Origin: Gammaproteobacteria bacterium
GTDB lineage: Bacteria > Pseudomonadota > Gammaproteobacteria > JACKNK01
Assembly: GCA_049604295.1 (NCBI GenBank)
Contig: JBMYTL010000002.1
Location: 4,659 to 68,658 of the forward strand
Length of the DNA: 64,000 bases
Reading direction: 5' to 3'
In this document: piece after piece, positions 19,117 to 40,510 of the stretch
How the letters are laid out: every line of letters starts with the position of its first letter
Numbering within the stretch: position 1 is the first letter of the stretch
Translations under genes and position numbers: made by a program
The notes under the pieces: generated by a model
The model's database searches: none
The model's input: only the letters and a program-made list of their open reading frames with translations
What the model was told of the DNA's origin: nothing

Positions 19117-19791
19117 GTGTTCGAGGAACGTAAACCCCGGCGCAGGCGGCTGCTCTGGCTCGTTGTGTTTGTGGCGGTGATCGTGGTGCTCGTGCCCACG
19201 GGGCTGCGCGCGCTCGGTTCCTGGCTGGTTTTCGAGGATATTCCCGACAAGGCCGATGCCGCCGTGGTCCTGAGTGGGCCGCAATACGCGGCGCGATTGG
19301 CGCGTGCCGCTGACCTGTACACCCAGGGGGTGGTCAGCAAGGTGGTGATCAACGGCGGGCGACGGGGCAGCGATGATGATTGGGTCTATGCCAAAGGATA
19401 TCTGCCCCCTTGTCCCTGGGACATCAACACGCGGGAGATGCTCGCGGTGCTCGGGGTGCCCCAGGTCGACGTGGTGTCCGTGCACGCGCCCGATGCGTTC
19501 GATACCCGTACCGAGGCAGCGCAGGTGGCGGATGAACTGGCGCGGCGGGATTACCGCTCCGTGGTGGTGACCACCAGCGCCTACCACACCCGCCGCGCGG
19601 CGGGGATCTGGCGATCCGATCATGGTGAGGCCCTGGGGATCGGGGTGGCGGCGGCCCGCCGGGATGGCTACGACCCGGAAACGTGGTGGACATCCCCGAA
19701 GATGGTGCGCGCCGTCATGGGCGAAGTCGGCGGGTACCTCTTTCGCGCCATGGTGAGCATGAATCCCATAGACGACGCGTCCGACCGGTGA
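19117..19791 (+). CDS. DUF218 (YdcF/ElyC/SanA-like) protein
   Basis: An N-terminal transmembrane helix, then a DUF218-like core (AAVVLSGPQY..., VVINGG, VVVTTSAYHTRRA). The GTG start lies 3 nt after the OsmC stop. Confidence 0.78.
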   Translation: MFEERKPRRRRLLWLVVFVAVIVVLVPTGLRALGSWLVFEDIPDKADAAVVLSGPQYAARLARAADLYTQGVVSKVVINGGRRGSDDDWVYAKGYLPPCPWDINTREMLAVLGVPQVDVVSVHAPDAFDTRTEAAQVADELARRDYRSVVVTTSAYHTRRAAGIWRSDHGEALGIGVAAARRDGYDPETWWTSPKMVRAVMGEVGGYLFRAMVSMNPIDDASDR

Positions 19792-19834
19792 GCGCCGTGC
19801 CCGGAACGGGTCAGGCGGGTATTGGGGGGCGTTG

Positions 19835-20800
19835 ATGCTCGACGTGTTCTTTACCGTCGATACCGAAACCTGGTGTAACGGCTGGTCGGACCTGGACGCG
19901 CGGTTTCCATCGGCCTTCGGGCGGTACATCCACGGTCACACGCGCAAGGGGGATTACGGTATTCCCCTGCAGATGAAGATCCTCTCCGATCATGGTCTGA
20001 CGGGTGTGTATTTCGTCGAACCGCTGTTCGCGGCCCGCTTCGGCATTGATCCGTTGGCCGAGGTCGTCGGTTTGGTGATGGAGGCGGGGCACGAGGTACA
20101 ACTGCATCTGCACACGGAGTGGGTGGATGAGGCCCACTCCGATCGGCTACCGGAAGTCGCCGGCAAGCGGCAACACCTGCGTTTGTTTGACCTGGACGAT
20201 CAGGTCCAGCTCCTTGGTGAAGGGCGCCGCCTGCTCATGGAGGCGGGGGCACGGGCGCCGAATGCCTTCCGCGCTGGCAATTACGGGTTCAACAACGACA
20301 GCCTCAAGGCCCTCTCGCGCCTGGGCATACGTTTCGACAGCAGCTACAACCCGGCGTCGGTGGCAGGCGTGGCGGACGTTGCCCCGGGGCGCCTGTTGAC
20401 CCAGCCGGAGGAGATTGAAGGTGTCATCGAACATCCGGTGACGGTGTTCCGGGACAGGGGGCCGGGGAGCCTGCGGAACCTGCAATTCACCGCCTGCTCC
20501 TTCGCGGAGATTCGCCACGTGTTGGACAGTGCGGAACAGGCCGGTTGGCAATCCGTCGTCATTGTTTCGCACAGTTTCGAGTTGCTTGGCCGTTCGAAGA
20601 CCGCCCCGGACCCCTGGGCCGTGCGGCGCTTCGAGCGCATGTGCGCGTACCTGGGGCGACACCGGGATCGTTTCACGGTGCGCGGCTTCCGCGGCTTGGC
20701 CGATGATGTGTATGGCGACCAACCCGAGCCCTTGACCTCAAACCCCCTGCGAACCGCCGGACGCTATGCCGAGCAGGCACTGCGGCGTCTGGCGCGTTGA
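19835..20800 (+). CDS. polysaccharide deacetylase-like (CE4-related) protein
   Basis: FFTVDTE and VQLHLHTEW motifs sit where CE4-type metal ligands occur, plus FRAGNYGFN. About 321 aa; ATG at 19835 (the track ORF starts with TTG at 19832). Confidence 0.68.
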   Translation: MLDVFFTVDTETWCNGWSDLDARFPSAFGRYIHGHTRKGDYGIPLQMKILSDHGLTGVYFVEPLFAARFGIDPLAEVVGLVMEAGHEVQLHLHTEWVDEAHSDRLPEVAGKRQHLRLFDLDDQVQLLGEGRRLLMEAGARAPNAFRAGNYGFNNDSLKALSRLGIRFDSSYNPASVAGVADVAPGRLLTQPEEIEGVIEHPVTVFRDRGPGSLRNLQFTACSFAEIRHVLDSAEQAGWQSVVIVSHSFELLGRSKTAPDPWAVRRFERMCAYLGRHRDRFTVRGFRGLADDVYGDQPEPLTSNPLRTAGRYAEQALRRLAR

Positions 20801-20837
20801 TCCGACAAACCCGGTCGACACGAGGAGCAACCAAACG

Positions 20838-22700
20838 ATGAATCGCAAAGACGGGACCGTGGAGGCCGTGCTTGCGGCGCAGGATCTGTTCGAGGTACGC
20901 CGGGCACTCGCTTCAGCGCGTGTTGCTCTGACCCTGCCTCAGGCCCAGACCCTGAGTGCCCATGTCTCCGGCTTGCTCGCCGAATCCGAATCCCTGCGCA
21001 TCGGCTTCGTTCATACCTACACCAGTGACCTGCTCGATCCGTGGCTGGAGCTGGAGGCCGCCGTGCAGGGGCTGGATGTATCGATATATCACGCGCCTTA
21101 TGGCCTCAATGTCATGGAGGCGGAGGCCGGGTCCGGGCTGGAGCAGCATCGCCCGGATCTCACCGTGCTGCTGTTGCGTCGGGAGGATCTTCACCCTGAA
21201 TTGGGCGGGCCCCTGAGCCGTTTTGACGCGGAAGGCGCGAAGGTTCTGCTGGGGGATGTGATCAGCCGCCTCGGCGGCTTGTTACAGCGTTTCAGCCGAC
21301 AACAGTTCGGGGAACTGGTGGTCACCGTTCTGCCCGCCTTGCAGGGGCCGGGGCTCGGGCTTCATGACCCCATGTCGGAACGCTCCGAGACGGCTTGGTG
21401 GGCCGATTTCAACCGTGCCCTGCGCGAGGAGATCCAAGCCCGATTCAACTCCGTCCGTCTTCTCGATCTGGATGCCGTGGTTGCCCAATTGGGCCGGGAG
21501 CGGTTTTTTGATCAGCGCTTCTGGTATTCGGCCACGTTTCCGTTCTCACCCGAGGCGGCCCGGGAAGTGGCCCGCCGCCTGGTGGCCCTGGGTGCGGTGC
21601 GCAAGCACCCCAAGGCGAAGGTGATCGCCCTGGACGCGGATAACACCCTCTGGGGTGGCGTCGTGGGCGAGGACGGGCCCACGGGTATCGCTCTGGGCCC
21701 TGAGTATCCGGGCAACCTGTTCGTGGACTTCCAGAAGCGCCTTCTGGAGTACAAACAGCGTGGATTCGTCCTGGTGTTGTGCAGCAAGAACAACCCGGAG
21801 GACGTCGATCAGATTCTCAGGGAGCACCCTCACTGCGTGCTCAAGGATTCGGATTTCGCAGCCAAGCGTGTCAACTGGGTCAGCAAGCCGGAGAATCTGG
21901 CGTCCATGGCCAAGGAACTGAACCTCGGCATTGATTCGTTCATCTTCGTGGACGATAGCGACTACGAATGCGCCGCCGTGCGCCATGAACTACCCGCGGT
22001 GGAGGTTATCCAGATACCCAAGCGTGTGGTGGATGTGCCCCGTTGTCTCGAAAAGGTCGCCCGGCTCGAGGTCACCAGCCTCACCGCCGAGGATATGAGC
22101 AAGACCCAGATGTACGTGCAGGAGCGCAAGCGGCGCGAGCTTCAGAACGACATGGGCTCCGACGGCGGTGACCTGACGGAATACCTGAAGTCACTGGAAC
22201 TGCGCATGAGCGTTGGCGTGGATGACATGGCCCACGTGAAGCGTCTGGCGCAACTGACCCAGAAGACCAACCAGTTCAATCTCACCACCCGTCGTTACAC
22301 GGAGAAGGAGATCGAAGACATGATCCGCTCGCCGGACTGGCGGGTGTTGCACTTCTCGCTGGTCGATGTGTTCGGTGACAGCGGTGTGGTGGGCTTGGCC
22401 CTGGCGCGTCGCTCGGGCGCGGACATGGCCATGATCGATACCCTGCTCATGTCCTGCCGCGTAATCGGCCGCATGGCGGAAACGGCGTTCCTTTACTCCC
22501 TGTTGGATCGGCTCGCCGGGGAAGGTGTGCGCGAGGTGCGCGCCGAGTATCTGCCCACCCGGAAAAATGCCCTGGTCAAGGATTACCTCCGTGACCACGG
22601 GTTCGAGGAGGAACCCGATGGCACCTGGCGCATCGATCCCGGCGAGACATCGGGACGCTTGGATCCACCCATCGAGATCGTGCTGACCGGCCAGGTTTGA
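20838..22700 (+). CDS. FkbH-like HAD-superfamily (subfamily IIIC) protein with C-terminal GNAT-like domain
   Basis: HAD nucleophile motif VIALDADNTLWGG, LCSKNNPEDV and FVDDSDYE in the central domain. The C-terminus carries LMSCRVIGRMAETAF, a GNAT-like segment. ORF 20766..22700 is trimmed to the ATG at 20838. Confidence 0.85.
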   Translation: MNRKDGTVEAVLAAQDLFEVRRALASARVALTLPQAQTLSAHVSGLLAESESLRIGFVHTYTSDLLDPWLELEAAVQGLDVSIYHAPYGLNVMEAEAGSGLEQHRPDLTVLLLRREDLHPELGGPLSRFDAEGAKVLLGDVISRLGGLLQRFSRQQFGELVVTVLPALQGPGLGLHDPMSERSETAWWADFNRALREEIQARFNSVRLLDLDAVVAQLGRERFFDQRFWYSATFPFSPEAAREVARRLVALGAVRKHPKAKVIALDADNTLWGGVVGEDGPTGIALGPEYPGNLFVDFQKRLLEYKQRGFVLVLCSKNNPEDVDQILREHPHCVLKDSDFAAKRVNWVSKPENLASMAKELNLGIDSFIFVDDSDYECAAVRHELPAVEVIQIPKRVVDVPRCLEKVARLEVTSLTAEDMSKTQMYVQERKRRELQNDMGSDGGDLTEYLKSLELRMSVGVDDMAHVKRLAQLTQKTNQFNLTTRRYTEKEIEDMIRSPDWRVLHFSLVDVFGDSGVVGLALARRSGADMAMIDTLLMSCRVIGRMAETAFLYSLLDRLAGEGVREVRAEYLPTRKNALVKDYLRDHGFEEEPDGTWRIDPGETSGRLDPPIEIVLTGQV

Positions 22701-22796
22701 TGCGGGTTCGGGGCTTCCGTGCAGGGCAACGTGGCGCCGCGCGCACCCCGGGCCGGGCCGTGGCGGCGGGCGGTTGTCTTCGCGGGGTGATATGCC

Positions 22797-23072
22797 ATGA
22801 TTGCGCGCTCGAACCCCACCCGGAGACGCGATTCCGTGAGTCTTTTTGAGCAATTGCGCGACACCATGGCCGCCACCCTGAAGATCTCACCGGATCTGAT
22901 CAAGGAGGACTCCACGGCGGAGGACATCACGGCCTGGGATTCGCTCGGTCACGTGAACCTGATGATGGCCCTCGAGCAGACCTTCGACCTGTTCCTGGAT
23001 GTTGAGGACTTCGCCAAGCTCAATACGGTGCCCGCGATCCTGGAATGTCTGCGCGAGAACGGTGCCGGGTAA
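22797..23072 (+). CDS. acyl carrier protein (stand-alone)
   Basis: Phosphopantetheine-attachment context ITAWDSLGHVNLMMALE. The more likely start is the GTG at 22836, which has a GGAGA 9 nt upstream and gives a typical 78-aa ACP. Confidence 0.8.
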   Translation: MIARSNPTRRRDSVSLFEQLRDTMAATLKISPDLIKEDSTAEDITAWDSLGHVNLMMALEQTFDLFLDVEDFAKLNTVPAILECLRENGAG

Positions 23073-23096
23073 GCCGGCCCCTCCGGTACTGCTCTC

Positions 23097-24002
23097 ATGG
23101 GGCTGGTGGAAAAACTCTCCGCTGTGTTGCACCGGCATCTCGACGCGGAGCGCATGGAGCGGCTGCGGGCGTTGTATTTCGCGTCGCGACGGCGCTTATA
23201 CCCGGTCATGCGGGGCCTGCACGGGACCTTCAACGCCGATGATCTGGTCGATCATCTGCGTGAACGTTTCGCGGAGGATTTCGACATTCTCATGGTGCAC
23301 AGCTCCGTCAATCACATGGAGCCGACCTATACCGGGACGCCCCTGGACCTGGTCAATGCCCTCAAGACCTTCTGTGGCCCCGAGCGAACCCTGGTGATGC
23401 CGGCGTTCTATTTCGGCGATCCCGAATACCCGAGCGTTGCCGCCACGTTTGCCGCCAAGCCCCGTTTCGACCTGCGGCGCACCCCGTCCCAGATGGGCTT
23501 GGCCACGGAGCTGTTCCGTCGTACCCGGGGTGCCGTGCAGAGCCGTCATCCTGTCTACCGGGTCGCGGCCCTGGGCCCCATGGCGGAAGAACTCGTTCGC
23601 GGTCACGAGAGCGCGGGAACACCGAGCGGAACCGGTACGCCTTTCGATTTCATGGCGAAGCATCGCACCCTGATCCTGGGCGTGGGCAAGTTCTCCGATG
23701 TGCTCACCCAGGTCCATCACATCGAGGACGTGATGGGGGATGCGTTTCCGGTGCCCGCGAGCAGCGGTGAGCCGATCGACCTGACTGTCGTGGACAAGGG
23801 CGAGGATATTCCCGTGCGCATCGGTCAGCGGGGCTTTAAATGGCGGCGCGACATGGGGCGTCTCCACGACCTTATGCCGGCGGGTACCCTGCATGAATGG
23901 CGCTTCCACCATGTGCCGATGTTTTCCACCCATGCCCACGCGGTGTCCGAGTCCCTGGAATTGGCGGCGCGCGAGGGACGGACCCTCTACATTCCGCGTT
24001 GA
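23097..24002 (+). CDS. AAC(3)-family (aminoglycoside N3-acetyltransferase-like) acyltransferase
   Basis: ILMVHSSVNHM...TPLDLVNAL...TLVMPAF matches the N-terminal signature region of AAC(3)/YokD-type enzymes; 301 aa. Confidence 0.72.
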   Translation: MGLVEKLSAVLHRHLDAERMERLRALYFASRRRLYPVMRGLHGTFNADDLVDHLRERFAEDFDILMVHSSVNHMEPTYTGTPLDLVNALKTFCGPERTLVMPAFYFGDPEYPSVAATFAAKPRFDLRRTPSQMGLATELFRRTRGAVQSRHPVYRVAALGPMAEELVRGHESAGTPSGTGTPFDFMAKHRTLILGVGKFSDVLTQVHHIEDVMGDAFPVPASSGEPIDLTVVDKGEDIPVRIGQRGFKWRRDMGRLHDLMPAGTLHEWRFHHVPMFSTHAHAVSESLELAAREGRTLYIPR

Positions 24003-24039
24003 CCCGATCGGGCTCGGCACGTCACAGCGAATACCTGCC

Positions 24040-24441
24040 ATGCGTTTCCACCACGTCGGCTATGCCGTTGCGGACATCCAGACCTTTCTCGACGAGCACC
24101 TTGTGCCGCTGTTCGCGCCCGAGGAGGTGTCGGGAATCACTGATGACCCGATTCAGAAAGTGCGGGTGTGTTTCGCGCGTATGCAGGGTGGCACGACCAT
24201 TGAGTTGGTTGCGCCGTTGGCTGACGGCAGCCCGGTGGACGCGATCATCGATAGCCCGCGGGGTGGTCTTTATCACCTGTGCTACGAGGTCGATGACCTG
24301 GATGGGGCGATCATGGACTTCCGCCGCAAGCGCTACATGCCGCTCGGGCGGCCCGTGCCTGCCGCGGCCTTCGACAACCGCCGCATCGTATTCATGATGA
24401 CGCCCCAGCATGACCTGATCGAACTGCTGGAGGCCGTTTGA
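24040..24441 (+). CDS. VOC-family protein, methylmalonyl-CoA-epimerase-like
   Basis: MRFHHVGYAV..., TIELVAPL, GGLYHLCYEVDDL and LIELLE match the paired beta-alpha-beta-beta-beta VOC pattern of epimerase-type members. ORF 23893..24441 is trimmed to the ATG at 24040. Confidence 0.78.
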   Translation: MRFHHVGYAVADIQTFLDEHLVPLFAPEEVSGITDDPIQKVRVCFARMQGGTTIELVAPLADGSPVDAIIDSPRGGLYHLCYEVDDLDGAIMDFRRKRYMPLGRPVPAAAFDNRRIVFMMTPQHDLIELLEAV

Positions 24442-24444
24442 GGC

Positions 24445-26577
24445 TCACTCGTAATGCAGCGATTCCGCCGATGACACCCGGGTCGCCGCCAGCGCGGGGT
24501 AGAGGGCGGCCAGCAGACAGACGCCGATGACACCGAGCGAGGTGAACAGCAGCAGGCGTCCGGAGGGTTCGTAGGTCAACTCGAAGAGGGTGAATCCGTC
24601 CAGGAAGGCTACGCTCACCGCACCGAGTATGGAGCCAAGTGCGGCTGCCAGAACCGCTCCCACCAAACCGATCAGGGAGCCCTCGATGAGCAGCAGCCGA
24701 ATCATCTGTCCATTGCTCATCCCGACAACGCGGTAGATGGAGAACTCCCGCGCCCTGGAGCGCACCTGTATGAGCAGGGCGTTGGCCACGCCGATGCCCG
24801 CCAGGGCCACCGTCAGGCTGAGGATGAAATCGAAGATCAGGAAGTCGCGATCGATCTCCTGTTGTTGGCGCCAGCCCAGCCAGCCTGCCCGCCACTGGGC
24901 TTGGTACTGCGGTGCTACACGCAGAATCTGTTCGCGATCTGGATCGTGCTCGTCTCCCGCCGCACGGGCGATGGCCAGGTCCCCGAGGCGCTGTTCCAGG
25001 TTGTTCGCGAACAAGGGATTGCCGTCGCTGAACAGGGCGTAGGTACGCATGTCGACGTACTGCTCGCGGACCGGGTAATAACCGTATCGGTCGCTGACCT
25101 CGAGTACCTCGAATCGATGCTGCTCTTCCGGCCCCGCGAGGATCAGCCGGTCTCCGGGTTCAAGGCGGTAGCGCGCCGCCAGCGTGGTGGAGAGAATGAC
25201 CTGGCCAGGGCCGAATGCGGGCCGACCGTCCGCGGCGCGCAGGCGGTTGAGATCGTGTGCCTTTACCAGGCGCATGGGCAGGGCACCGAGACCCTTCGGG
25301 CTGACGCGGTAGAAGTACACGCCTTGCGCGGCCATTTCCTCAAGCAGCACTTCGGGCAATGGCTCATCGAGACCGCGCACCTTGGTGTAGTGGACGTTGG
25401 GTATCAGCGCGTCCGTGGCCCAGTGGTGGATCTCCATTTTCAGTGAAGTCGCGATGCCCTGCAGGGCGGTGACCAGGCTGAAGACCACGACCACGGAGAT
25501 GATGGTGAAGGTGAACTGCCGCAGTGCCAGGCGCATGCGTCGCCCGGACAGCAGCGTCTCCAGGGGCAGGGCCGAGCCCAGCACGAGTTCGAAGGCTCGG
25601 ATCAACATCTTGAGCACAGGGCGTACCCAGATCAGCACGGCCAGGGCAAAAAGGACCACAAAGGCCGATTCAACCAGGAAGAACACCACCACGGTGAGCC
25701 AGTCCTTGAGGAAGGGCCGCATCATTACGTAGGCCATGGCCAGTACGGGAATCAGTATCCAGGCGTAGCCGCCGCGCTGGCCCCCATCCAATTCGTTCTC
25801 ATCCGCCACAAAGCGCGGCTGCAGTACGTCGCGTATGGACAGGCGCCACAGGTGCAGGGCGGGGCCGGCCACGCCGGCCAGGGCGACGAGAATGCCGATA
25901 GTGCTCACGGCCCCCAGTTCCAACCAGGGCAGATGGAAACCCGCCACGAAGCTGCGCCCGGTGGTGGTCACCCCATGGGCGAGCAGGGTCATGGCCGTGG
26001 GAATGGCCGCCAACGACCCGAGCAACAAGCCCACAAAGCCCAGTATCACGGCCTCGATCGCCAGGGCCAAAGCCGCAGTCTGGCGTTGTTCGCCCAGGGT
26101 CAGTAGAAGGGCGAACTCGCGTCGCCGGGAGGCCAGCGAGAAGCGCATGGTGTAGAAAACAATGACCGCGCCGATGGTGAACGCGAAAACGGAGGCGAGG
26201 CGCACGGCCAGGCGCATGGCCTGGTAGTCCGCCTCCCCGATACGTTCGGTGGCCTCGCCACTGGGTTCGACCCGGTCTTCGTCACCCTGCTGCGCCGGGA
26301 CCAGGGCGATGCGGGTCTGCTCTCCGCCTGCGCGTTCAAAGCGCAGTTCCCGGATATCAGGGAGTCCGGCTGCCGCGGGACGCTCGCGTACCCGTTCCAT
26401 GCGGGCCAGCTCACGGGCGTCACGTATGGACTCGGATCGTGAGGTGTTGTGATCGACGATGAGGATGGTGCTGATCACCAACATGCCGATGGCAACACCC
26501 AACACCGTGATCAAGGCGACTCCGCGATGGAAGCGGATGCCCTTGAGAGCGAGATAGAGGGCGAGACCCAGGCGCAT
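24445..26577 (-). CDS. ABC transporter permease with two FtsX-type domains
   Basis: 710 aa with two four-helix FtsX-like modules (around ASRRREFALLLTLGEQR and SRAREFSIYRVVGMSNGQ). The second is preceded by a large extracytoplasmic domain. Confidence 0.85.
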   Translation of the reverse strand: MRLGLALYLALKGIRFHRGVALITVLGVAIGMLVISTILIVDHNTSRSESIRDARELARMERVRERPAAAGLPDIRELRFERAGGEQTRIALVPAQQGDEDRVEPSGEATERIGEADYQAMRLAVRLASVFAFTIGAVIVFYTMRFSLASRRREFALLLTLGEQRQTAALALAIEAVILGFVGLLLGSLAAIPTAMTLLAHGVTTTGRSFVAGFHLPWLELGAVSTIGILVALAGVAGPALHLWRLSIRDVLQPRFVADENELDGGQRGGYAWILIPVLAMAYVMMRPFLKDWLTVVVFFLVESAFVVLFALAVLIWVRPVLKMLIRAFELVLGSALPLETLLSGRRMRLALRQFTFTIISVVVVFSLVTALQGIATSLKMEIHHWATDALIPNVHYTKVRGLDEPLPEVLLEEMAAQGVYFYRVSPKGLGALPMRLVKAHDLNRLRAADGRPAFGPGQVILSTTLAARYRLEPGDRLILAGPEEQHRFEVLEVSDRYGYYPVREQYVDMRTYALFSDGNPLFANNLEQRLGDLAIARAAGDEHDPDREQILRVAPQYQAQWRAGWLGWRQQQEIDRDFLIFDFILSLTVALAGIGVANALLIQVRSRAREFSIYRVVGMSNGQMIRLLLIEGSLIGLVGAVLAAALGSILGAVSVAFLDGFTLFELTYEPSGRLLLFTSLGVIGVCLLAALYPALAATRVSSAESLHYE

Positions 26578-33387: not shown

Positions 33388-33447
33388 GTTCAGACCGCGG
33401 TTCAGACCGCAGTTCTGGCTGCGGTTCTGGCTGCGGTTCAGGCCGCC
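33388..33447. repeat. 12-bp tandem repeat x5 with dyad symmetry
   Basis: The units read GTTCAGACCGCG, GTTCAGACCGCA, GTTCTGGCTGCG, GTTCTGGCTGCG, GTTCAGGCCGCC. Units 1-2 are near reverse complements of units 3-4. The array fills the convergent gap and overlaps the alpha-E stop codon. Confidence 0.85.
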
Positions 33448-34394
33448 TGGCTTTGCTCCTGTTCGGCTGTCTTGAGGAAGTACGCTTCCACCACGCTCTG
33501 GTGAATCCTGATGAGGCCCAACTGCAGCTCGTCGATAGCGTCGTGCAGTGAGGGGTCGTCGTGTTTGTCCGCGGTGATGCCGTCCAGTGTGTGCACGAAC
33601 TCGTCCAGGGCGGCCTTGACGATGTCATGGTGCGGCAGTTTCTTCAGTTCCCCGACCATCTGGCCGTGGCAGTAACGTACGGCGCGCGGAAAGTCCTCGT
33701 GATGGAAGAGGAAATCCAGCACGGCCCCGCGCTGAATGCGGACCTGCATGGCCCGGCGATACATCTGGTAGCCGGTCAGAGACTTGAGCACGGCCATCCA
33801 TCGCAGGCCCTCGATGGCGCGGGACTCTTCGTCGGTGCCATGCATGATCGTGGCGGCCTGAACGTCGATCATGCGTGTGGTCATGTCCGCCCGCTCAAGC
33901 TTGCGGCCGATGTTGAAGAAGCTGTAGGCCGCATCGTGGTTCATGCTGCCGGCCAGGATGCCGGTGAGCGTCTGGATGCCCTCGATCAGGCTGGAGAGGA
34001 ATTCAAACCGGCCGTGTTTGGTCAGGCCTTTCTGCAAGCCGTCGCTGACCTGGTGGTAGAGCTCGTTGAGTTTCTCCCAGGCTTCGCGCGGGATGATGTC
34101 GCGGATGGTGCGGGCGTTCTCACGGGCGAAGGCGAGGCTGGAAAGTGTCGAGCCGTGGTTTTCCAGATCGCCAACGATGAAGTGAACGACCCTGCGTTCG
34201 GTGTACTCGTCCCAGCGTGCTTCGAAGGCCTGTTCGCCGCCGAGAATGACGACAAGGGGGCGCCAACCGGGTGTGATGCCCCGGGGCAGGTCCATGAGCA
34301 GGTTCGTGGAGACCTGCGTCAGACGTGCGGTGTTCTCAGCGCGCTCGATATAGCGCCCCATCCAGTAAATCGTTTCGGCGACTCGCGACAACAT
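33438..34394 (-). CDS. alpha-E domain protein (DUF403 family)
   Basis: The N-terminus MLSRVAETIYWMGRYIERAENTARL is the hallmark of alpha-E proteins; 318 aa. Confidence 0.9.
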   Translation of the reverse strand: MLSRVAETIYWMGRYIERAENTARLTQVSTNLLMDLPRGITPGWRPLVVILGGEQAFEARWDEYTERRVVHFIVGDLENHGSTLSSLAFARENARTIRDIIPREAWEKLNELYHQVSDGLQKGLTKHGRFEFLSSLIEGIQTLTGILAGSMNHDAAYSFFNIGRKLERADMTTRMIDVQAATIMHGTDEESRAIEGLRWMAVLKSLTGYQMYRRAMQVRIQRGAVLDFLFHHEDFPRAVRYCHGQMVGELKKLPHHDIVKAALDEFVHTLDGITADKHDDPSLHDAIDELQLGLIRIHQSVVEAYFLKTAEQEQSQAA

Positions 34395-34537
34395 GGCTCT
34401 CTACCTTATCTCTAGCTCCAAGGGTGTCGATCCGCGACGACGGTTCGGATGGACTCCATCAACACACCGTCCGCGAGGCGGACACCCCCGGAATTCAAAA
34501 CCCAAAACTCATAATTCAAAGTTCGCGCGCCAGCGCG

Positions 34538-35983
34538 CTAGACGTCTACGATCCAGGTGTCCTTGGACCCGCCCCCCTGGGAGCTGTTGACCACGAGTGA
34601 GCCCTTGCGCAGGGCGACGCGGGTCAGCCCGCCCATGGTCACCTCCTGGGTTTTGCCCGTGAGGATGAACGGCCGCAAGTCCAGGTGACGCGGCTCCAGG
34701 GTTTTGCCGATCACGGTCGGCGTGGTGGACAGCGACAGCGTGGGTTGGGCGATGTAGTTGCGCGGGTCGGCCTTGATCAGTTCCTTGAACTTGGCGCGCT
34801 CGGCCTTGGTGGACGCCGGCCCCACGAGCATGCCGTAGCCACCGGACTCGTTGGCGGGTTTAACCACCAGATCCTTGATGTTGGCGAGTACGTACTCCAG
34901 GGAGTCCTCGTCCATGCAGCGGTAGGTGGGGACGTTGGGAACGATGGGGTCCTCGCCCAGGTAGTACTTGATGATGTCCGGTACGTAGGAATAGACCACC
35001 TTGTCGTCAGCGACGCCGGCTCCGGGGGCATTGGCCAGGGCGACGTTACCGGCCTTCCAGGCGCGCATGAGCCCGGGTACGCCCAGCAGCGATTCCTTGT
35101 CGAAGACCTCCGGATCCATGAACAGGTCATCAATGCGGCGGTAAATCACATCGACGCGCTCGGGGCCCTCAATGGTGCGCATATAGACGCAATCGTCATC
35201 GTCAACGTACAGATCACGACCCTCGACCAGTTCACAGCCCATCTGCTGCGCGAGATAGGAGTGCTCGAAGTAGGCTGAATTGAAGATGCCGGGGGTCAGC
35301 ACCACGATCTCCGGGGTGTCCCCGGGGCGGGGGCTCAGGGAGGCAAGGGTGTCGAACAGGTCCGAGGGGTATTCGTCCACCGGCAGGGGGGCGTACTCGC
35401 GAAACAGTTCGGGGAAGACGCGCTTGGTGACCAGGCGGTTTTCCAGCATGTACGACACGCCGGACGGCACACGCAGGTTGTCCTCCAGAACGTACAGGGT
35501 GCCGTCGCCATCGCGCACCAGGTCCGATCCGCAGATATGGGCCCATATTCCCAACGGCGGGCTGACCCCGATGCATTGCTTGCGGAAGTTGACGGAGTTC
35601 TTCAGCAGGTCACCAGGGAAGACTTTGTCCTTGACGATCTTCTGGTCGTGATAGAGGTCGTCGATGAACAGGTTGAGGGCGTGAACGCGCTGTTTCAGGC
35701 CCTTGGCCGTTTGGTCCCATTCCTTCTTTGCGATGATCCTGGGAATGATGTCGAAGGGCCATGCCCGGTCGATGGAACCTTCCTCCTGGGTGTACACCCG
35801 GAAGGTCACGCCCATCTGTTTCATGGACAGGTCGGCTTCAGCCTGTCGTTGCTGGAGGTCTTCGGTGTCCAGTTCGTCCAGGAAGGAAACCAGCTCCTTC
35901 GCGGCTGCGCGGGGTTTGCTTTCTTCATCTATGAGTTCGTCGAAAAAATCCGATTTCTCATAGGCTTGCCAGTTTATTGTCAT
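34538..35983 (-). CDS. circularly permuted type-2 ATP-grasp protein
   Basis: 481 aa with a typical sequence for this family (WPFDIIPRII, YVLEDNLRVPSGVSYMLENR, VVKPANESGGYGM). It sits in the canonical position upstream of alpha-E. Confidence 0.9.
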   Translation of the reverse strand: MTINWQAYEKSDFFDELIDEESKPRAAAKELVSFLDELDTEDLQQRQAEADLSMKQMGVTFRVYTQEEGSIDRAWPFDIIPRIIAKKEWDQTAKGLKQRVHALNLFIDDLYHDQKIVKDKVFPGDLLKNSVNFRKQCIGVSPPLGIWAHICGSDLVRDGDGTLYVLEDNLRVPSGVSYMLENRLVTKRVFPELFREYAPLPVDEYPSDLFDTLASLSPRPGDTPEIVVLTPGIFNSAYFEHSYLAQQMGCELVEGRDLYVDDDDCVYMRTIEGPERVDVIYRRIDDLFMDPEVFDKESLLGVPGLMRAWKAGNVALANAPGAGVADDKVVYSYVPDIIKYYLGEDPIVPNVPTYRCMDEDSLEYVLANIKDLVVKPANESGGYGMLVGPASTKAERAKFKELIKADPRNYIAQPTLSLSTTPTVIGKTLEPRHLDLRPFILTGKTQEVTMGGLTRVALRKGSLVVNSSQGGGSKDTWIVDV

Positions 35984-36070
35984 GTCATTTCTAGCTCTTT
36001 GGTGCCGCCCCTTGCGTGTTTCGGGGCTCCTCTTGATGCGTTTCGGTATGGCCCTCCCTGGCCTGTCGGG

Positions 36071-39000
36071 TCAGCGCCTGGGTGGATGGCGCAGGTCGAG
36101 GGTCCAGGGGAAGTCGGGGTTGGGGTTCTCGTCGGGCGGCGTGATGGCCGAGCTTGTATGGCCGGTCTTGGAGAAGCGGGCCAGGCGTCGGGACTCGGCT
36201 TCGTTGGCATTCACCGGGAAGGTCTCATAGCTGCGCCCGCCCGGGTGAGCCACGTGGTAACTGCATCCGCCCAGGGAGCGGTCATTCCAGGTGTCGACGA
36301 TGTCGAAGGTGAGCGGGGCCTGCACGCCGATGGTGGGGTGCATGCCCGAGGGCGGTGCCCAGGCCTTGAAGCGGACGCCGGAAACGAACTCACCCCGGGT
36401 ACCGGTGGAGCGCAGGGGCAGGCGGCGACCGTTGCAGGCGATGACGTGGCGGCCTTCCACCAGGCCCTGGGCCTTGACCTGGAGCCGTTCCACGGAGGAA
36501 TCCACGAAGCGGGCGGTGCCCAGGGCGGTGATCTCCTCGCCGAGCACGTTCCAGGGCTCGATGGCGAAGCGCAGTTCCATTTCCACGTCGTCCACGTTGA
36601 TGGTGCCGTAGCGGGGGAAGCGGAACTCCACGAAGGGGTCGAACCAAGCCGGGTCGAAGTCGTAGCCGGCACGATTGATGTCATGCACGACGTCGTGAAT
36701 GTCGCGCTCCACGTAGTGGGGCAGCATAAAGCGGTCGTGCAGTTCCGTGCCCCAACGCACGGGGTCGTGGTCGTAGGGTTTGTCCCAGAAGCGCGCGATC
36801 AGGGTGCGCAGCAGCAACTGCTGTACTGAGGACATGCGCGAGTGCGGCGGCATTTCGAAGCCGCGGAATTCCACCAGGCCCAGGCGGCCGGTGGGGCCGT
36901 CGGGGGAGTAGAGCTTGTCGATGCAGAACTCGGCGCGGTGGGTGTTGCCGGTCAGGTCCACCAGCAGATGGCGGAGGATGCGGTCCACCAACCAGGGGGC
37001 GGGGGTCTCGCCGGGTGGCACCTCGCTGAAGGCGATGCCCAATTCATAGAGGCTGTCGTCGCGGGCCTCGTCCACGCGTGGGGCCTGGGAGGTTGGGCCG
37101 ATGAACAGGCCGGAGAACAGGTAGGAGAGCGAGGGGTGGTGCTGCCAATAGGTGATCAGCGAGCGCAGCAGATCGGGCCGACGCAGGATGGGGCTGTCAG
37201 CGGGTTTGGCCGCGCCAATGGTGACGTGGTTGCCGCCGCCGGTGCCGCTGTGTCGCCCGTCGAGCATGAATTTCTCGGTGCCCAGGCGCGACTGGCGTGC
37301 CTCCTCGTAGAGGACTTCGGTGTTGCTCACCAGTTCGCGCCAGTCGTTGGCGGGATGCACGTTGACCTCGATGACGCCCGGGTCGGGGGTGACGTTGAGG
37401 CGCATGAGGCGCGGATCGTGGGGCGGCTCGTAACCCTCCATGATCAGGGGTACGCCGGTCTCCGTGGCGGCGGCCTCCAGGGCGTTGAGCAGGTCCAGGT
37501 AGTGTTCAAGTTCCTCGAGCGGGGGCAGGAACACATGCACGTGACCGTCGCGGGGCTCCACGCAGAGGGCGGTGCGCACCACGTTGCCTTCCGCTTCCTC
37601 TTCCTTGCTCGGTCGGGCATCGGCGGCACGAGGCTCGGGCGGGCGGGCGATGACCTCGCCAGACTGCACCATGCGCAGGCGGTCGCGGATCTCCGGCAAC
37701 TCGTCGCGCTCATCGAACGGGTCCTTGGGGATGACCTGTTGGCGGTTCTTCTTCGGCTCCCAGATCAGGGAATCGAGGGGTAGGCGGTAGCCCATGGCCG
37801 AGTCACCGGGGATCAGGAACATATTGCCGCGCCGGAAGGCCCAGGGACCGGAGATCCAGCTGTCCTTACGGTAGTCCCAGGCCACGGGAAGGGCGAAGCC
37901 CACCTTGTGGTTGAGGCCCTGGTCGAAGACTTTACGCAGACGCGCGCGCTCCATGGGGTCGGCCATCTTGTTGTCGAGTACGTCCACGTTGGAGGGCAGG
38001 GTGCCTTCCTTCCACAGGTAGTAGATCGCGTCCTCGTAGCCGGGTACCACGTTCGAAGTCGGCACCCCGAGGTGCTTGGCGATGGCCTGGGCCATACGCA
38101 GGGCATCGGTGGTACCGCTGTCACCATCGGTGGCCGGGTCGGCCAGCAAATCGGGTTCGTTCCAGACGGACTGGCCGTCGCGGCGCCAGTAACAGCCCAG
38201 CGCCCAGCGTGGCAGTTGTTCGCCGGGGTACCATTTTCCCTGGCCGTAGTGCAGCACGCCGTTGGCGCCGAAAGCCTTCTTCAGCTTGCGCACCAGAACG
38301 CCGGCGCGCTCCAGTTTGTGCTTGCCCAGGGCGGCGGTGTTCCACTGCGGGCTGTCCATGTCGTCGATGGATACGAAGGTGGGTTCGCCGCCCATGGTCA
38401 GGCGCACGTCGTTCTTGTCGAGCATCCGGTCCACGTGGTCGCCCAGGGCGAGGATGGCCTGCCACTGCTCATCGGTGTACGGCTTGGTGACGCGGGGATC
38501 TTCGCGGATGCGGGTGACGGAGTTTTCGAACTCGAAGGTGACTTCGCATTTGTCGCTGGCGCCGACAATCGGCGCGGCGCTTACCGGGTCAGGGGTGCAG
38601 GCCAGGGGGATGTGGCCTTCACCGGCAAACAGGCCCGAGGTGGGGTCCAGACCCACCCAACCGGCGCCCGGGATGTAGACCTCGGCCCAGGCATGCAGAT
38701 CAGTGAAGTCCTCCTCGGGGCCTGACGGACCATCCAGGGCTTTCTGGTCGGCGGTGAGCTGCACGAGGTAGCCGGAGACGAAACGGGCGGCGAGGCCCAT
38801 ATGCCGCAGAATCTGCACCAGCAGCCAGGCGGAGTCGCGGCAGGAACCGGTCTTGCACTGCAAGGTCTCCTCGCAGGTCTGGATCCCCACCTCCATGCGA
38901 ATGTTGTAGCCGATGGCTTGCTCGAGACGCTGGTTCAGCTCGACCAGGAAATGAACGATATGCGGCCCGTTCGGCAGGTCGTCGTCTTCCTCCGCCATGG

Positions 39001-39436
39001 CGCGGGTCGCTGCGCGGCCGGGCATGTCGGCGCGCAGATCTTCCAAGAGCTTGGTGAGAAGAGGGCCGCGTTCCTTGATCTCCAGGTAGGGGGCCAGTTC
39101 CTTGCGTTCCTGGTCGGCGTACTTGAATGGGTAGTGGCTCGAGTAATCCTCGACGAAGAAATCGAACGGGTTGATGGTCACCAGGTCGGCGACAACCGAT
39201 ACGTCCACCACCAGCTTGGTGGCCTTCTCCGGAAACACGAGGCGCGCGATGTAGTTGCCGAAGGGATCCTGCTGCCAGTTGAGGAACTGTTCCTCGGGCT
39301 CGACCTTGAGGGAGTAATGGTGAATCGGCGTGCGGCTGTGCGGCGCAGGGCGCAGTCGAACCAGGTGGGGTGACAGGGCGACGGGCCGATCGTAGTGGTA
39401 TTCCGTACGGTGCCGGATGGCGACGCGTATCGACAT
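36071..39436 (-). CDS. transglutaminase-like / DUF2126 fusion protein
   Basis: Bact_transglu_N-like start (MSIRVAIRHRTEYHYDRPV), a transglutaminase core with Cys (GSCRDSAWLL) and His/Asp (DLHAWAEVY...GLDPTSG), then a DUF2126-like region of about 800 aa. ORF trimmed to the ATG at 39436. Confidence 0.9.
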   Translation of the reverse strand: MSIRVAIRHRTEYHYDRPVALSPHLVRLRPAPHSRTPIHHYSLKVEPEEQFLNWQQDPFGNYIARLVFPEKATKLVVDVSVVADLVTINPFDFFVEDYSSHYPFKYADQERKELAPYLEIKERGPLLTKLLEDLRADMPGRAATRAMAEEDDDLPNGPHIVHFLVELNQRLEQAIGYNIRMEVGIQTCEETLQCKTGSCRDSAWLLVQILRHMGLAARFVSGYLVQLTADQKALDGPSGPEEDFTDLHAWAEVYIPGAGWVGLDPTSGLFAGEGHIPLACTPDPVSAAPIVGASDKCEVTFEFENSVTRIREDPRVTKPYTDEQWQAILALGDHVDRMLDKNDVRLTMGGEPTFVSIDDMDSPQWNTAALGKHKLERAGVLVRKLKKAFGANGVLHYGQGKWYPGEQLPRWALGCYWRRDGQSVWNEPDLLADPATDGDSGTTDALRMAQAIAKHLGVPTSNVVPGYEDAIYYLWKEGTLPSNVDVLDNKMADPMERARLRKVFDQGLNHKVGFALPVAWDYRKDSWISGPWAFRRGNMFLIPGDSAMGYRLPLDSLIWEPKKNRQQVIPKDPFDERDELPEIRDRLRMVQSGEVIARPPEPRAADARPSKEEEAEGNVVRTALCVEPRDGHVHVFLPPLEELEHYLDLLNALEAAATETGVPLIMEGYEPPHDPRLMRLNVTPDPGVIEVNVHPANDWRELVSNTEVLYEEARQSRLGTEKFMLDGRHSGTGGGNHVTIGAAKPADSPILRRPDLLRSLITYWQHHPSLSYLFSGLFIGPTSQAPRVDEARDDSLYELGIAFSEVPPGETPAPWLVDRILRHLLVDLTGNTHRAEFCIDKLYSPDGPTGRLGLVEFRGFEMPPHSRMSSVQQLLLRTLIARFWDKPYDHDPVRWGTELHDRFMLPHYVERDIHDVVHDINRAGYDFDPAWFDPFVEFRFPRYGTINVDDVEMELRFAIEPWNVLGEEITALGTARFVDSSVERLQVKAQGLVEGRHVIACNGRRLPLRSTGTRGEFVSGVRFKAWAPPSGMHPTIGVQAPLTFDIVDTWNDRSLGGCSYHVAHPGGRSYETFPVNANEAESRRLARFSKTGHTSSAITPPDENPNPDFPWTLDLRHPPRR

Positions 39437-39465
39437 GGTGCAGGTGTCTCTTGGATGTGCTCTAA

Positions 39466-39484
39466 AATGGTGCGTCGCACCATT
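39466..39484. promoter_or_regulatory. perfect 19-bp palindrome AATGGTGCG-T-CGCACCATT (candidate operator or 5' UTR hairpin)
   Basis: 9-bp arms are exact reverse complements. It lies 30 nt upstream of the transglutaminase/DUF2126 ATG, inside the 237-bp divergent region shared with the Anbu gene. Confidence 0.4.
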
Positions 39485-39673
39485 GGGTGGAGGCGCGATA
39501 CTCCCCCATTTCACCCCATCTGAACAGCGTTGCATCAACCATGCCATGGGCATCGGATGATGGGGCTCTCATTGGCCTGATTGCGGGATTGAAGTCGTGG
39601 CCAAGGTGAAGGTGGCCAATGGGGCGTGGGGAATGCATAAAATCATGGGCCCGCAATTTGCTAAGTCCTGACC

Positions 39674-40510
39674 ATGACCTACTGCGTTGGCTTGAGACTC
39701 AACGATGGCCTGGTGTTCGCTTCGGACTCCCGAACGAACGCCGGCGTCGATTACGTCACCACGTACTCGAAGATGCACGTGCTGACCCCGGCACCGGATC
39801 GCACCTTCGTGATTCTTTCCGCGGGTAACCTCGCTACCACGCAGGCGGTGGTGAACCGCGTGCGCCGGGATCTGGATTTCCCGGACGGTGGCGAAAACCT
39901 CCTCAGCGCACGCTACTTGTTCGAAGCCGCGGAATACCTCGGAAGGGTGAGTGTCGGGACCCAGATGCAGCATTCGGACGCACTGGCCGCGTGCAATGTG
40001 AGTGGCGAGACGACGCTTATCCTGGGCGGACAGATCGGCAATCAGCCCCATGGGCTTTTCCTGATCTACCCTCAGGGCAACTACATCGAAGCCTCCACCT
40101 CCACCCCGTACCTGCAGATCGGCGAGACCAAATACGGGAAGCCGGTGCTCGACCGTGTGATCCGCTCCGACCTGAGTCTGGAGGATGCCGCCCGCCTGGC
40201 CCTGGTTTCGTTGAACTCCACGGCCCATTCCAATACCACCGTGGGTCCGCCGTTCGAGCTGTCCATTCTGCGTGCCGGGTGCCAGGGCCTGTCCGCCCAT
40301 TGTGTTCTGGGCGATCACGGCGATTTTCTGTCGACCCTGGAGCAGGCATGGCGGGACGGTCTCAATGCCGTGTTCGCGAATCTGCCCCGCTTCGATTGGG
40401 AGGACCGCATGAGCCAGGACAGCATCGCCTTCGATGAACCGGGGGAGGCGCCGTCTCAGCAGCAGGCCCAGGTGATTCCCGTGCGACCGGGCGATATCCG
40501 CGGCGGGTGA
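39674..40510 (+). CDS. Anbu (ancestral beta-subunit) proteasome-like Ntn-hydrolase
   Basis: MTYCVGLRLNDGLVFASDSRTNAG places Thr directly after the initiator Met (nucleophile without a propeptide), with Asp and Lys at about the spacing seen in proteasome beta subunits; 278 aa. Confidence 0.85.
   Translation: MTYCVGLRLNDGLVFASDSRTNAGVDYVTTYSKMHVLTPAPDRTFVILSAGNLATTQAVVNRVRRDLDFPDGGENLLSARYLFEAAEYLGRVSVGTQMQHSDALAACNVSGETTLILGGQIGNQPHGLFLIYPQGNYIEASTSTPYLQIGETKYGKPVLDRVIRSDLSLEDAARLALVSLNSTAHSNTTVGPPFELSILRAGCQGLSAHCVLGDHGDFLSTLEQAWRDGLNAVFANLPRFDWEDRMSQDSIAFDEPGEAPSQQQAQVIPVRPGDIRGG

Follow-up and report, generated by a model that had tools for sequence, protein, structure and literature searches.

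A predicted FkbH-type cassette for exchanging N-acyl groups on amino sugars in a gammaproteobacterial contig

Genes and predicted proteins of the cassette

A 64,000-nucleotide stretch of a gammaproteobacterial contig (JBMYTL010000002.1), which we call the window, carries at positions 19117-24441 a gene for a DUF218 protein followed by a five-gene cassette. The cassette encodes a protein of predicted CE4 fold (ORF3), an FkbH-type loader, a stand-alone acyl carrier protein (ACP), an AAC(3)-fold N-acyltransferase and a VOC-family protein. The open reading frame (ORF) list and the translations of the window confirm all six + strand ORFs at the coordinates that an earlier, sequence-only reading had assigned to them. 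Counted from the upstream OsmC-like gene onward, the intergenic gaps are 3, 43, 37, 96, 24 and 37 nt, in agreement with that reading's description of six packed ORFs 24-96 nt apart, the first of which begins 3 nt past the OsmC-like gene. The motifs it had picked out (FFTVDTE, HLHTEW, LDADNTLWGG, CRVIGRMAE, AWDSLGH, ILMVHSS and TLVMPAF) are all present in the translations. It had also seen no terminator between the genes, and the number of terminator-like matches in the cassette, 4 against 4.0 expected from shuffled sequence, bears this out. The sole promoter-like site upstream of the block lies before the OsmC-like gene.

The loader (20838..22700, + strand) is a protein of 620 aa, which we describe as a three-domain FkbH-type enzyme from its TIGR01686 match and a structure model. 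The match to TIGR01686, the FkbH domain, reaches 278.4 bits (cut-off 146.65) and runs over residues 260-592, or profile positions 3-322 of 323; the HAD-IIIC model TIGR01681 gives 71 bits. All HAD catalytic motifs (DxDxT, Ser/Thr, Lys and DD) are present, and across 22 homologues D266, D268, T270, S316, K350, D372, D373 and C540 are invariant. Cys540, in the motif SCRVIGR, sits within the GNAT-fold C-terminal domain. In Foldseek searches the HAD core matches MDP-1 and the C-terminus matches GNAT folds, so the three-part protein with a central HAD domain and a GNAT-like C-terminus that had been read from the sequence stands, at a length of 620 aa. The N-terminal domain, an alpha/beta domain, together with the HAD domain matches only BF1531 of B. 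fragilis (PDB 3slr; 2.6e-32 by sequence, TMt 0.76 by fold).

The loader belongs to a family of more than 6600 homologues, and FkbH-like members occur in Competibacter, Accumulibacter, Nitrosomonas and Asgard-archaeal metagenome-assembled genomes (MAGs). Full-length FkbH-like genes at 29-41% identity are found in archaeal MAGs of Promethearchaeota (loci L027 and L041), Thorarchaeota (L055) and Nanoarchaeota (L067), some of them near an ACP and/or a VOC gene.

ORF3 (19835..20800, + strand; 321 aa) has no match at E<=0.01 in Pfam, PF01522 (Polysacc_deac_1) included, or in NCBIfam, and the best hit of a phmmer search of the PDB is only the CE4 structure 3rxz at E=0.42. Its predicted structure is more informative. 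An AF2 model built on 24 homologues has a pLDDT of 90 and a pTM of 0.91, and its top Foldseek matches in the PDB are all CE4/NodB enzymes (4e-10 to 1e-6, probability 1.00), among them 3rxz (4e-10), ArnD (8t0j, 3.5e-9), HP0310, and peptidoglycan and chitin deacetylases. The residues D9, E11, H91, H93, R146 and H246 are invariant across the 24 homologues and could, judging from the alignment, serve as base, metal ligands and acid. Their spacing, D9-x-E11 and H91-x-H93, differs from that of the CE4 motifs TFDD, H[ST]xxH, RxPY and LxH. The sequence lacks a signal peptide, which argues for a cytoplasmic enzyme. The earlier description of ORF3 as CE4-related is thus upheld by the confident model and its structural matches, whereas a Pfam or NCBIfam family match is wanting. 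On the strength of the model and the conserved residues, we regard ORF3 as a divergent CE4-fold family that has no Pfam model, and predict that it is a cytoplasmic, metal-dependent de-N-acylase.

The ACP carries a DSL phosphopantetheine site and matches PF00550 at 27 bits (cut-off 20.8). The best NCBIfam ACP model scores 41.5 bits, and the protein stays below the cut-offs for the housekeeping ACP (AcpP). Its start is ambiguous: translation from the ATG at 22797 would yield 91 aa, including an Arg-rich leader, and from the GTG at 22836 it would yield 78 aa (22836..23072, + strand), the form called on an identical Logan contig and in relatives. The stand-alone ACP proposed earlier is confirmed; its start may be GTG 22836 instead of 22797.

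The AAC(3)-fold (Antibiotic_NAT) N-acyltransferase (23097..24002, + strand) matches PF02522 at 106.1 bits (cut-off 25), as the sequence-only reading had expected. Against the NCBIfam AAC_3 equivalog it scores 67.8 bits (cut-off 270), and against the subclass models 37-56 bits (cut-offs 420-675). Sequence matches in the PDB are to AAC(3)s and to FrbF (3sma), near 1e-10. All homologues keep H207 and at least 90% keep E210, and the segment VHHIE aligns with LHYAE of PDB 6np1; in AAC(3)-VIa the corresponding His/Glu pair is catalytic. Because the gene is tied genetically to the ACP and the loader, we predict that the enzyme uses an acyl-S-ACP donor, not acetyl-CoA, and a sugar acceptor.

The last gene (24040..24441, + strand) encodes a predicted VOC/glyoxalase-I-like metalloenzyme that matches Glyoxalase_4 at 61.2 bits (cut-off 27). 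It had been called methylmalonyl-CoA-epimerase-like, but the likeness is not specific: the score against TIGR03081, the methylmalonyl-CoA epimerase model, is 50.6 bits, under the cut-off of 114.95, and glyoxalase I of C. acetobutylicum (2qh0/3hdp, 68 bits) is a closer solved relative than human MCEE (47 bits). In the alignment with 2qh0 the His and Glu residues that serve as metal ligands are identical in the two proteins. The product of glyoxalase I is a 2-hydroxyacyl thioester, and its reaction, like that of methylmalonyl-CoA epimerase, passes through an enol(ate) beside a thioester; given this shared chemistry, inversion at C2 is the economical guess for the VOC protein. Our prediction is that it acts on a 2-hydroxyacyl thioester, by C2 epimerisation or isomerisation of glyceryl-S-ACP. 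The VOC gene lies directly beside FkbH in many distant loci from many phyla, whichever transferase is present, which argues that its substrate is the donor rather than the acceptor.

Conserved gene set and its settings in relatives

Our comparison covers 80 loci from species-representative genomes, plus contigs of individual homologues, and FkbH was called in 78 loci. Fifteen loci, the window included, form a close clade in which FkbH is at least 49% identical to that of the window; its members come from Competibacteraceae, Rubrivivax, Halioglobus, Nitrosomonas, Thiohalocapsa, Methylococcales and others. Within this clade the ACP gene adjoins FkbH in 15/15 loci, the AAC(3) gene adjoins FkbH-ACP in 14/15, drawn from different orders, and an ORF3-like gene lies at most 10 kb from FkbH in 11/15. 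Overall, an ACP gene lies no more than three genes from FkbH in 41 of the 78 loci.

The clade also shows an alternation. Four loci have the VOC gene (the window, L002, L003 and L088) and nine have instead a MaoC-dehydratase/SDR fusion of about 480-565 aa (L004, L006, L008-L011, L070, L087 and L089); none has both. This alternation suggests two product types, glyceroyl and lactyl. From these counts, the conserved unit consists of ORF3, FkbH, ACP, AAC(3) and either VOC or MaoC-SDR, and its recurrence in unrelated genomes places the arrangement far beyond chance. Of the six packed ORFs, co-conservation thus retains these five and leaves out DUF218.

Several further proteins accompany or replace members of the unit. 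In L087 a 607-aa alpha/beta-hydrolase (L087:12125-13948) follows FkbH-ACP at the usual AAC(3) position. A family of ~372 aa stands directly 3' of the ACP in 14 distant loci that have no AAC(3) gene (for example L032:11962-13080) and is a candidate alternative transferase. A ~376-aa protein, cluster 31, accompanies the cassette in seven close-clade loci (for example L008:14502-15632, - strand). NCBIfam gives no matches for cluster 31, the ~372-aa family or a 393-aa protein of L088, and the ~372-aa family has no Pfam match either. In a Competibacteraceae MAG (L002:13853-18735) the cassette is followed by an S-adenosylmethionine (SAM) methyltransferase and by a trio of GtrA, GT2 and a 594-aa membrane protein, the layout of three-component periplasmic glycan-modification systems.

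The sequence-only reading had presented the cassette as an orphan, unusual for its missing glycan partners, but several close relatives sit in full exopolysaccharide (EPS) loci with GT4, Wzy, Wzx, UDP-glucose dehydrogenase, amidotransferase and CE4 genes. In L088 the series FkbH-ACP-AAC3-x-VOC is surrounded by genes for three GT4s, two Asn-synthase-type amidotransferases, a UDP-glucose dehydrogenase, a CE4 protein and a methyltransferase. L089 has ORF3, Acyl_transf_3, FkbH, ACP, AAC3 and MaoC, adjoining CE4, Wzy, a CapK-like ligase, two GT4s and an amidotransferase, and L087 has Wzx and a ligase/decarboxylase pair typical of exosortase loci. Across the 78 loci glycan genes recur as neighbours of FkbH: GT4 (22), SDR (15), Asn synthase (14), CE4 (14), LbH acetyltransferase (13), UDP-glucose dehydrogenase (11), methyltransferase (10), DegT (9), FabH (9), sulfotransferase (9), NeuB (7) and Bac_transf (7). 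About half of the close-clade copies are, like that of the window, detached from glycan loci. The copy in the window is thus an orphan by position and not by nature: the cassette is probably a glycan-tailoring module that is detached here.

ORF3 also travels without the loader. Orthologues at 53-58% identity lie inside exosortase-type EPS loci of Nitrosospira sp. Nsp5 and Allochromatium palmeri, and in small modules of Pseudoduganella and Motiliproteus. A FemAB-like Acetyltransf_6 gene stands beside the orthologue in 4/4 cases, joined by a GNAT gene in 3/4. Since its orthologues pair with other N-acyltransferases, ORF3 appears to be a shared de-N-acylase, and the simplest reading is that it frees the amine on one kind of sugar, which interchangeable bolt-on systems then re-acylate. 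In Motiliproteus sediminis (L086:10001-12470) the ORF3 orthologue, the FemAB-like Acetyltransf_6 and the GNAT gene form an island among the rib operon, glyA, nrdR and pyk, which we view as another detached acyl-swap module.

The first gene of the packed block (19117..19791, + strand) encodes a membrane-anchored DUF218 protein (PF02698, 1.9e-13) with an N-terminal hydrophobic helix. It is probably co-transcribed with the cassette, but its place in the module is doubtful: DUF218 is near FkbH in 0/14 of the other close-clade loci, and the single distant match, in L019, lies ~6 kb off on the opposite strand. At the other end, an ABC exporter of MacB type abuts the cassette and runs convergent to it. 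The VOC stop and the stop of the FtsX/MacB-type permease are 3 nt apart (24441-24445), which leaves no space for a terminator. We reject DUF218, OsmC and the ABC exporter as module members, since 0/14 of the other close-clade loci carry them. For the same reason the DUF218 gene and the exporter lose the value that the sequence-only reading had given them as hints at the cell envelope.

Elsewhere, the window holds only housekeeping genes and one phosphomannomutase, as judged from Pfam searches of 30 ORFs and reading of the rest by eye. As that reading had held, the same survey of the 64 kb finds no glycosyltransferase, Wzx/Wzy, polyketide synthase (PKS) or nonribosomal peptide synthetase. The set that marks an XrtA-type EPS locus (exosortase, PEP-CTERM, glycosyltransferase and Wzx/Wzy) is absent from the window, as are proteins with a PEP-CTERM sorting signal in a scan of it. 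Rfam, tRNA and repeat scans of the window find no tRNA, no Rfam RNA and no flanking repeats that would mark an insertion. The target is therefore indicated by neither a riboswitch nor an insertion boundary nor a protein with a sorting signal. We reject a recent horizontal insertion, given GC content and skew that are uniform across the cassette region and the lack of mobility genes.

Two other groups of genes in the window may be recorded. At 33438-40510 the genes for an Alpha-E protein, a circularly permuted ATP-grasp protein, a 1160-aa transglutaminase/DUF2126 amidoligase-like protein and, transcribed divergently, a proteasome-type (Anbu-like) subunit are clustered. At the left edge a TraB/PrgY/GumN-family protein and an Acetyltransf_3 GNAT (1174-2136 and 123-665) show no tie to the cassette; GumN-family genes are found in some EPS clusters.

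A putative N-acyl exchange pathway and its rivals

In our judgement the five genes probably form a cytoplasmic glycan-tailoring module that swaps the N-acetyl group of an amino sugar for N-glyceroyl (2,3-dihydroxypropanoyl) by way of glyceryl-S-ACP. In the putative pathway, the loader would take 1,3-bisphosphoglycerate to (phospho)glyceryl-S-Cys540, its HAD domain, with Asp266 as nucleophile, would remove the phosphate, and the D-glyceryl unit would be handed to the phosphopantetheine arm of the ACP. The VOC protein would then act on glyceryl-S-ACP through a C2 enediolate, most simply by inversion to L-glyceryl-S-ACP. ORF3 would remove N-acetyl from a cytoplasm-facing amino sugar, either nucleotide-activated or undecaprenyl-linked, and the AAC(3)-fold enzyme, using His207/Glu210, would acylate the freed amine with the glyceroyl group of the ACP thioester, the phosphopantetheine arm of the ACP mimicking CoA. 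Enzymes encoded elsewhere in the genome would build the decorated sugar into exopolysaccharide or another surface glycan. In sister loci with the MaoC-dehydratase/SDR fusion in place of VOC, dehydration and reduction could convert glyceryl-ACP to lactyl-ACP and so lead to N-lactyl.

None of the five proteins has an export signal, which argues that the acceptor faces the cytoplasm. The sequence-only reading had already proposed the order of events (deacetylation, assembly of a glyceroyl-type unit on the ACP, then transfer to the amine). The near-constant presence of the ACP (15/15) and AAC3 (14/15), the CE4 fold of ORF3 and the pairing of ORF3 orthologues with other N-acyltransferases all fit this scheme, although every step remains inferred.

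Several points weigh against this reading. We know of no AAC(3)-fold enzyme that takes an acyl-ACP donor. No glycan genes lie within the 64-kb window, and ORF3 is absent from 4/15 close-clade loci, two of them on truncated contigs. The atypical spacing of its motifs (D-x-E and H-x-H) would allow a different class of substrate, and the loader has 250 aa at its N-terminus for which the scheme does not account and which could shift the substrate away from 1,3-bisphosphoglycerate. The part we give to the VOC protein is pure inference. Finally, in C. jejuni the AAC-type gene Cj1296/7 is out of frame in variants that still make the dimethylglyceroyl glycan (PMC3068675). The analogous transferase may thus be dispensable there, or Cj1298 may do the job.

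Other readings keep part of this chemistry and change its target. The same reactions might act on a core envelope precursor of peptidoglycan or of lipopolysaccharide (LPS)/lipid A, for example a UDP-GlcNAc-derived sugar, instead of exopolysaccharide. This would explain why the cassette lies among housekeeping genes with no EPS genes in the window; L003 and the ORF3-FemAB-GNAT trio of Motiliproteus are similar isolated copies among core genes, and ArnD, a lipid A-modification enzyme, is among the closest structural matches of ORF3. We nevertheless consider a core-envelope target unlikely, as the informative contexts are of EPS type (Wzy/Wzx, GT4, exosortase) and not peptidoglycan or lipid A genes, and to our knowledge neither N-glyceroyl peptidoglycan nor N-glyceroyl lipid A has been described. 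It is less likely still that glyceryl-ACP serves a secondary-metabolite pathway, in which the unit would pass to a free amine metabolite to give a diffusible N-glyceroyl compound that the adjacent ABC transporter might export. It is in natural-product pathways that FkbH enzymes are best known, FrbF, which acts in a phosphonate antibiotic pathway, is among the matches of the transferase, and the MacB-type exporter abuts the cassette. However, no PKS, nonribosomal peptide synthetase, ketosynthase or further tailoring genes were found in the window, the convergent exporter is co-conserved in no close-clade locus, and relatives are embedded in polysaccharide loci.

The transferred group itself might differ if the loader took another phosphorylated acid by means of its extra N-terminal domain. 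That domain is absent from the 366-aa OzmB, its sole match is to BF1531, a protein without known function, and the neighbouring tailoring enzymes vary widely in family (MaoC-SDR, methyltransferases, FabH, SDR and AMP-ligases). We give little credence to an acyl unit other than glyceroyl, because the match to TIGR01686 is full-length and well above the cut-off, all HAD and Cys motifs are conserved, and, among glycans linked to a locus of this kind, the one whose chemistry is defined has a glycerate-derived group.

The five genes might also be unrelated neighbours, with the AAC(3)-like protein an aminoglycoside resistance enzyme and the VOC protein a housekeeping glyoxalase. Their Pfam names would fit, and the best solved relative of the VOC protein is a true glyoxalase I. 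We reject aminoglycoside resistance, given the scores far under the resistance-family cut-offs (67.8 against 270 for the AAC_3 equivalog) and the co-conservation with FkbH-ACP. With FkbH-ACP-AAC3 adjacent in 14/15 loci and VOC beside FkbH in many phyla, chance neighbourhood is already contradicted by co-conservation and is the remotest of the explanations weighed here.

A bolder proposal goes beyond the glyceroyl-transferring glycan module; we hold it only tentatively and would not yet expect it to prove right in full. In this proposal the AAC(3)-fold protein works as an N-hydroxyacyl transferase with acyl-ACP as its donor, and donors of that type have not been described for the Antibiotic_NAT fold. 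With the extended FkbH loader and the divergent CE4 amidase it might make a self-contained, horizontally portable acyl-swap unit, and such units might be the genetic basis on which surface glycans of bacteria and archaea come to carry N-glyceroyl and N-lactyl amino sugars. As a corollary, AAC(3) resistance enzymes would descend from glycan-tailoring transferases.

N-glyceroyl, O-methyl-glyceroyl and N-lactyl groups decorate bacterial surface sugars, including those of virulence-associated flagellin and S-layer glycans. In Campylobacter the genetics of such decorations has been traced no further than a locus. Should the predicted chemistry prove right, these three groups would gain a simple enzymology, FkbH chemistry would extend from polyketides to glycans, and an acyl-ACP donor would be shown for the AAC(3) fold. 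Because the FkbH-like family is large and widespread, this would bear on the diversification of exopolysaccharides in floc- and biofilm-forming organisms.

Comparison with known systems

The closest biochemical precedent for the loader is OzmB, a 366-aa enzyme that takes 1,3-bisphosphoglycerate through glyceryl-S-enzyme to glyceryl-S-ACP (PMC9057759). Like FkbH and OzmB, the cassette loader has an FkbH domain above the cut-off, HAD-IIIC motifs and a dedicated stand-alone ACP encoded next door; its invariant Cys540 is a candidate for the residue that forms the glyceryl-S-enzyme. In contrast, it is 620 aa long, with an extra N-terminal domain of 250 aa, and we predict that an AAC(3)-fold transferase delivers the loaded unit to an amine and that the unit does not enter a polyketide. 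FkbH-type loading modules are also listed as yielding D-lactate-ACP (PMC7901079). The methoxymalonyl and tetronate pathways further differ in having FkbK/FkbI-type dehydrogenases, the FkbG O-methyltransferase and a PKS, which the cassette lacks. A scan of 30 window ORFs turned up neither FkbK/FkbI-type dehydrogenases nor an O-methyltransferase, nor yet a PKS or FabH-like condensing partner, in keeping with the sequence-only view that this is not a canonical extender-unit pathway. We thus reject a PKS extender-unit pathway to methoxymalonyl-ACP or a tetronate, as genes for oxidation, methylation and a PKS are missing. We found no functional study of this module, or of FkbH-type enzymes in glycan pathways, in the open literature searched.

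In its logic the cassette resembles the acylation of Nod factor, in which NodB is a CE4 deacetylase, NodA an N-acyltransferase, and NodF/NodE a dedicated ACP and an acyl-building enzyme. In the Nod system, and by prediction in the cassette, a cytoplasmic CE4-fold enzyme frees an amine, a special ACP carries the acyl group and a transferase moves it to the amine. The parts differ: there is no NodA homologue, the cassette transferase matching only Antibiotic_NAT in Pfam, and only the CE4 fold is common to the two, ORF3 being too divergent for the NodB Pfam model. The acyl group of the cassette is a predicted C3 hydroxy acid from FkbH, unlike the ketosynthase-made fatty acid of the Nod system. 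Among the closest structural matches of ORF3 is ArnD (8t0j), the undecaprenyl-phosphate-Ara4FN deformylase, a de-N-acylase that works on a lipid-linked amino sugar at the cytoplasmic face. The two share 13% sequence identity, and ORF3 differs in its D-x-E and H-x-H spacing.

Similar in gene content is the flagellin-glycan region cj1295-cj1302 of C. jejuni NCTC 11168, which is linked to 2,3-di-O-methylglyceroyl-pseudaminic acid and in which cj1295 is required. Its annotation lists an FkbH-domain/HAD-IIIC protein (cj1302), an 'epimerase' (cj1301), a SAM methyltransferase (cj1300) and the N-acetyltransferases cj1296/7 and cj1298, the last originally classed under antibiotic resistance. By annotation, which is the only level of this comparison, the gene set is similar to that of the cassette, and the combination is therefore not unprecedented. 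In contrast, nonulosonic acid genes, a methyltransferase and a cj1295-type gene are all missing from the window, which has the CE4-fold de-N-acylase instead. A Bacteroidales MAG (L057) with the order VOC-FkbH-ACP-MTase-AAC3 bridges the two. In C. jejuni the dimethylglyceroyl group is already present on CMP-linked nonulosonic acids, which places that acylation in the cytoplasm, at the level of the nucleotide sugar. For Pse5Am7Gra of Tannerella forsythia, the genetic basis of the N-glyceroyl group was stated to be unknown in 2017.

The modules of Nitrosospira, Allochromatium, Pseudoduganella and Motiliproteus share with the cassette an ORF3 orthologue followed by an N-acyltransferase system, there Acetyltransf_6 with GNAT. 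They differ in the predicted donor, which is probably aminoacyl-tRNA- or acetyl-CoA-dependent in those modules and FkbH/ACP/AAC(3)-dependent in the cassette. With the AAC(3)s and FrbF the cassette transferase shares its fold and the conserved His/Glu pair; unlike the AAC(3)s, it falls far below the resistance-family cut-offs and is tied to an ACP and a loader.

The copy in the window is one more member of a large family, unusual only in sitting away from any glycan locus. As far as sequence comparison can tell, this uncharacterised family would combine processes of known kinds, the loading of a C3 unit as in FkbH and the CE4/ACP-dependent swapping of N-acyl groups as in the Nod system.

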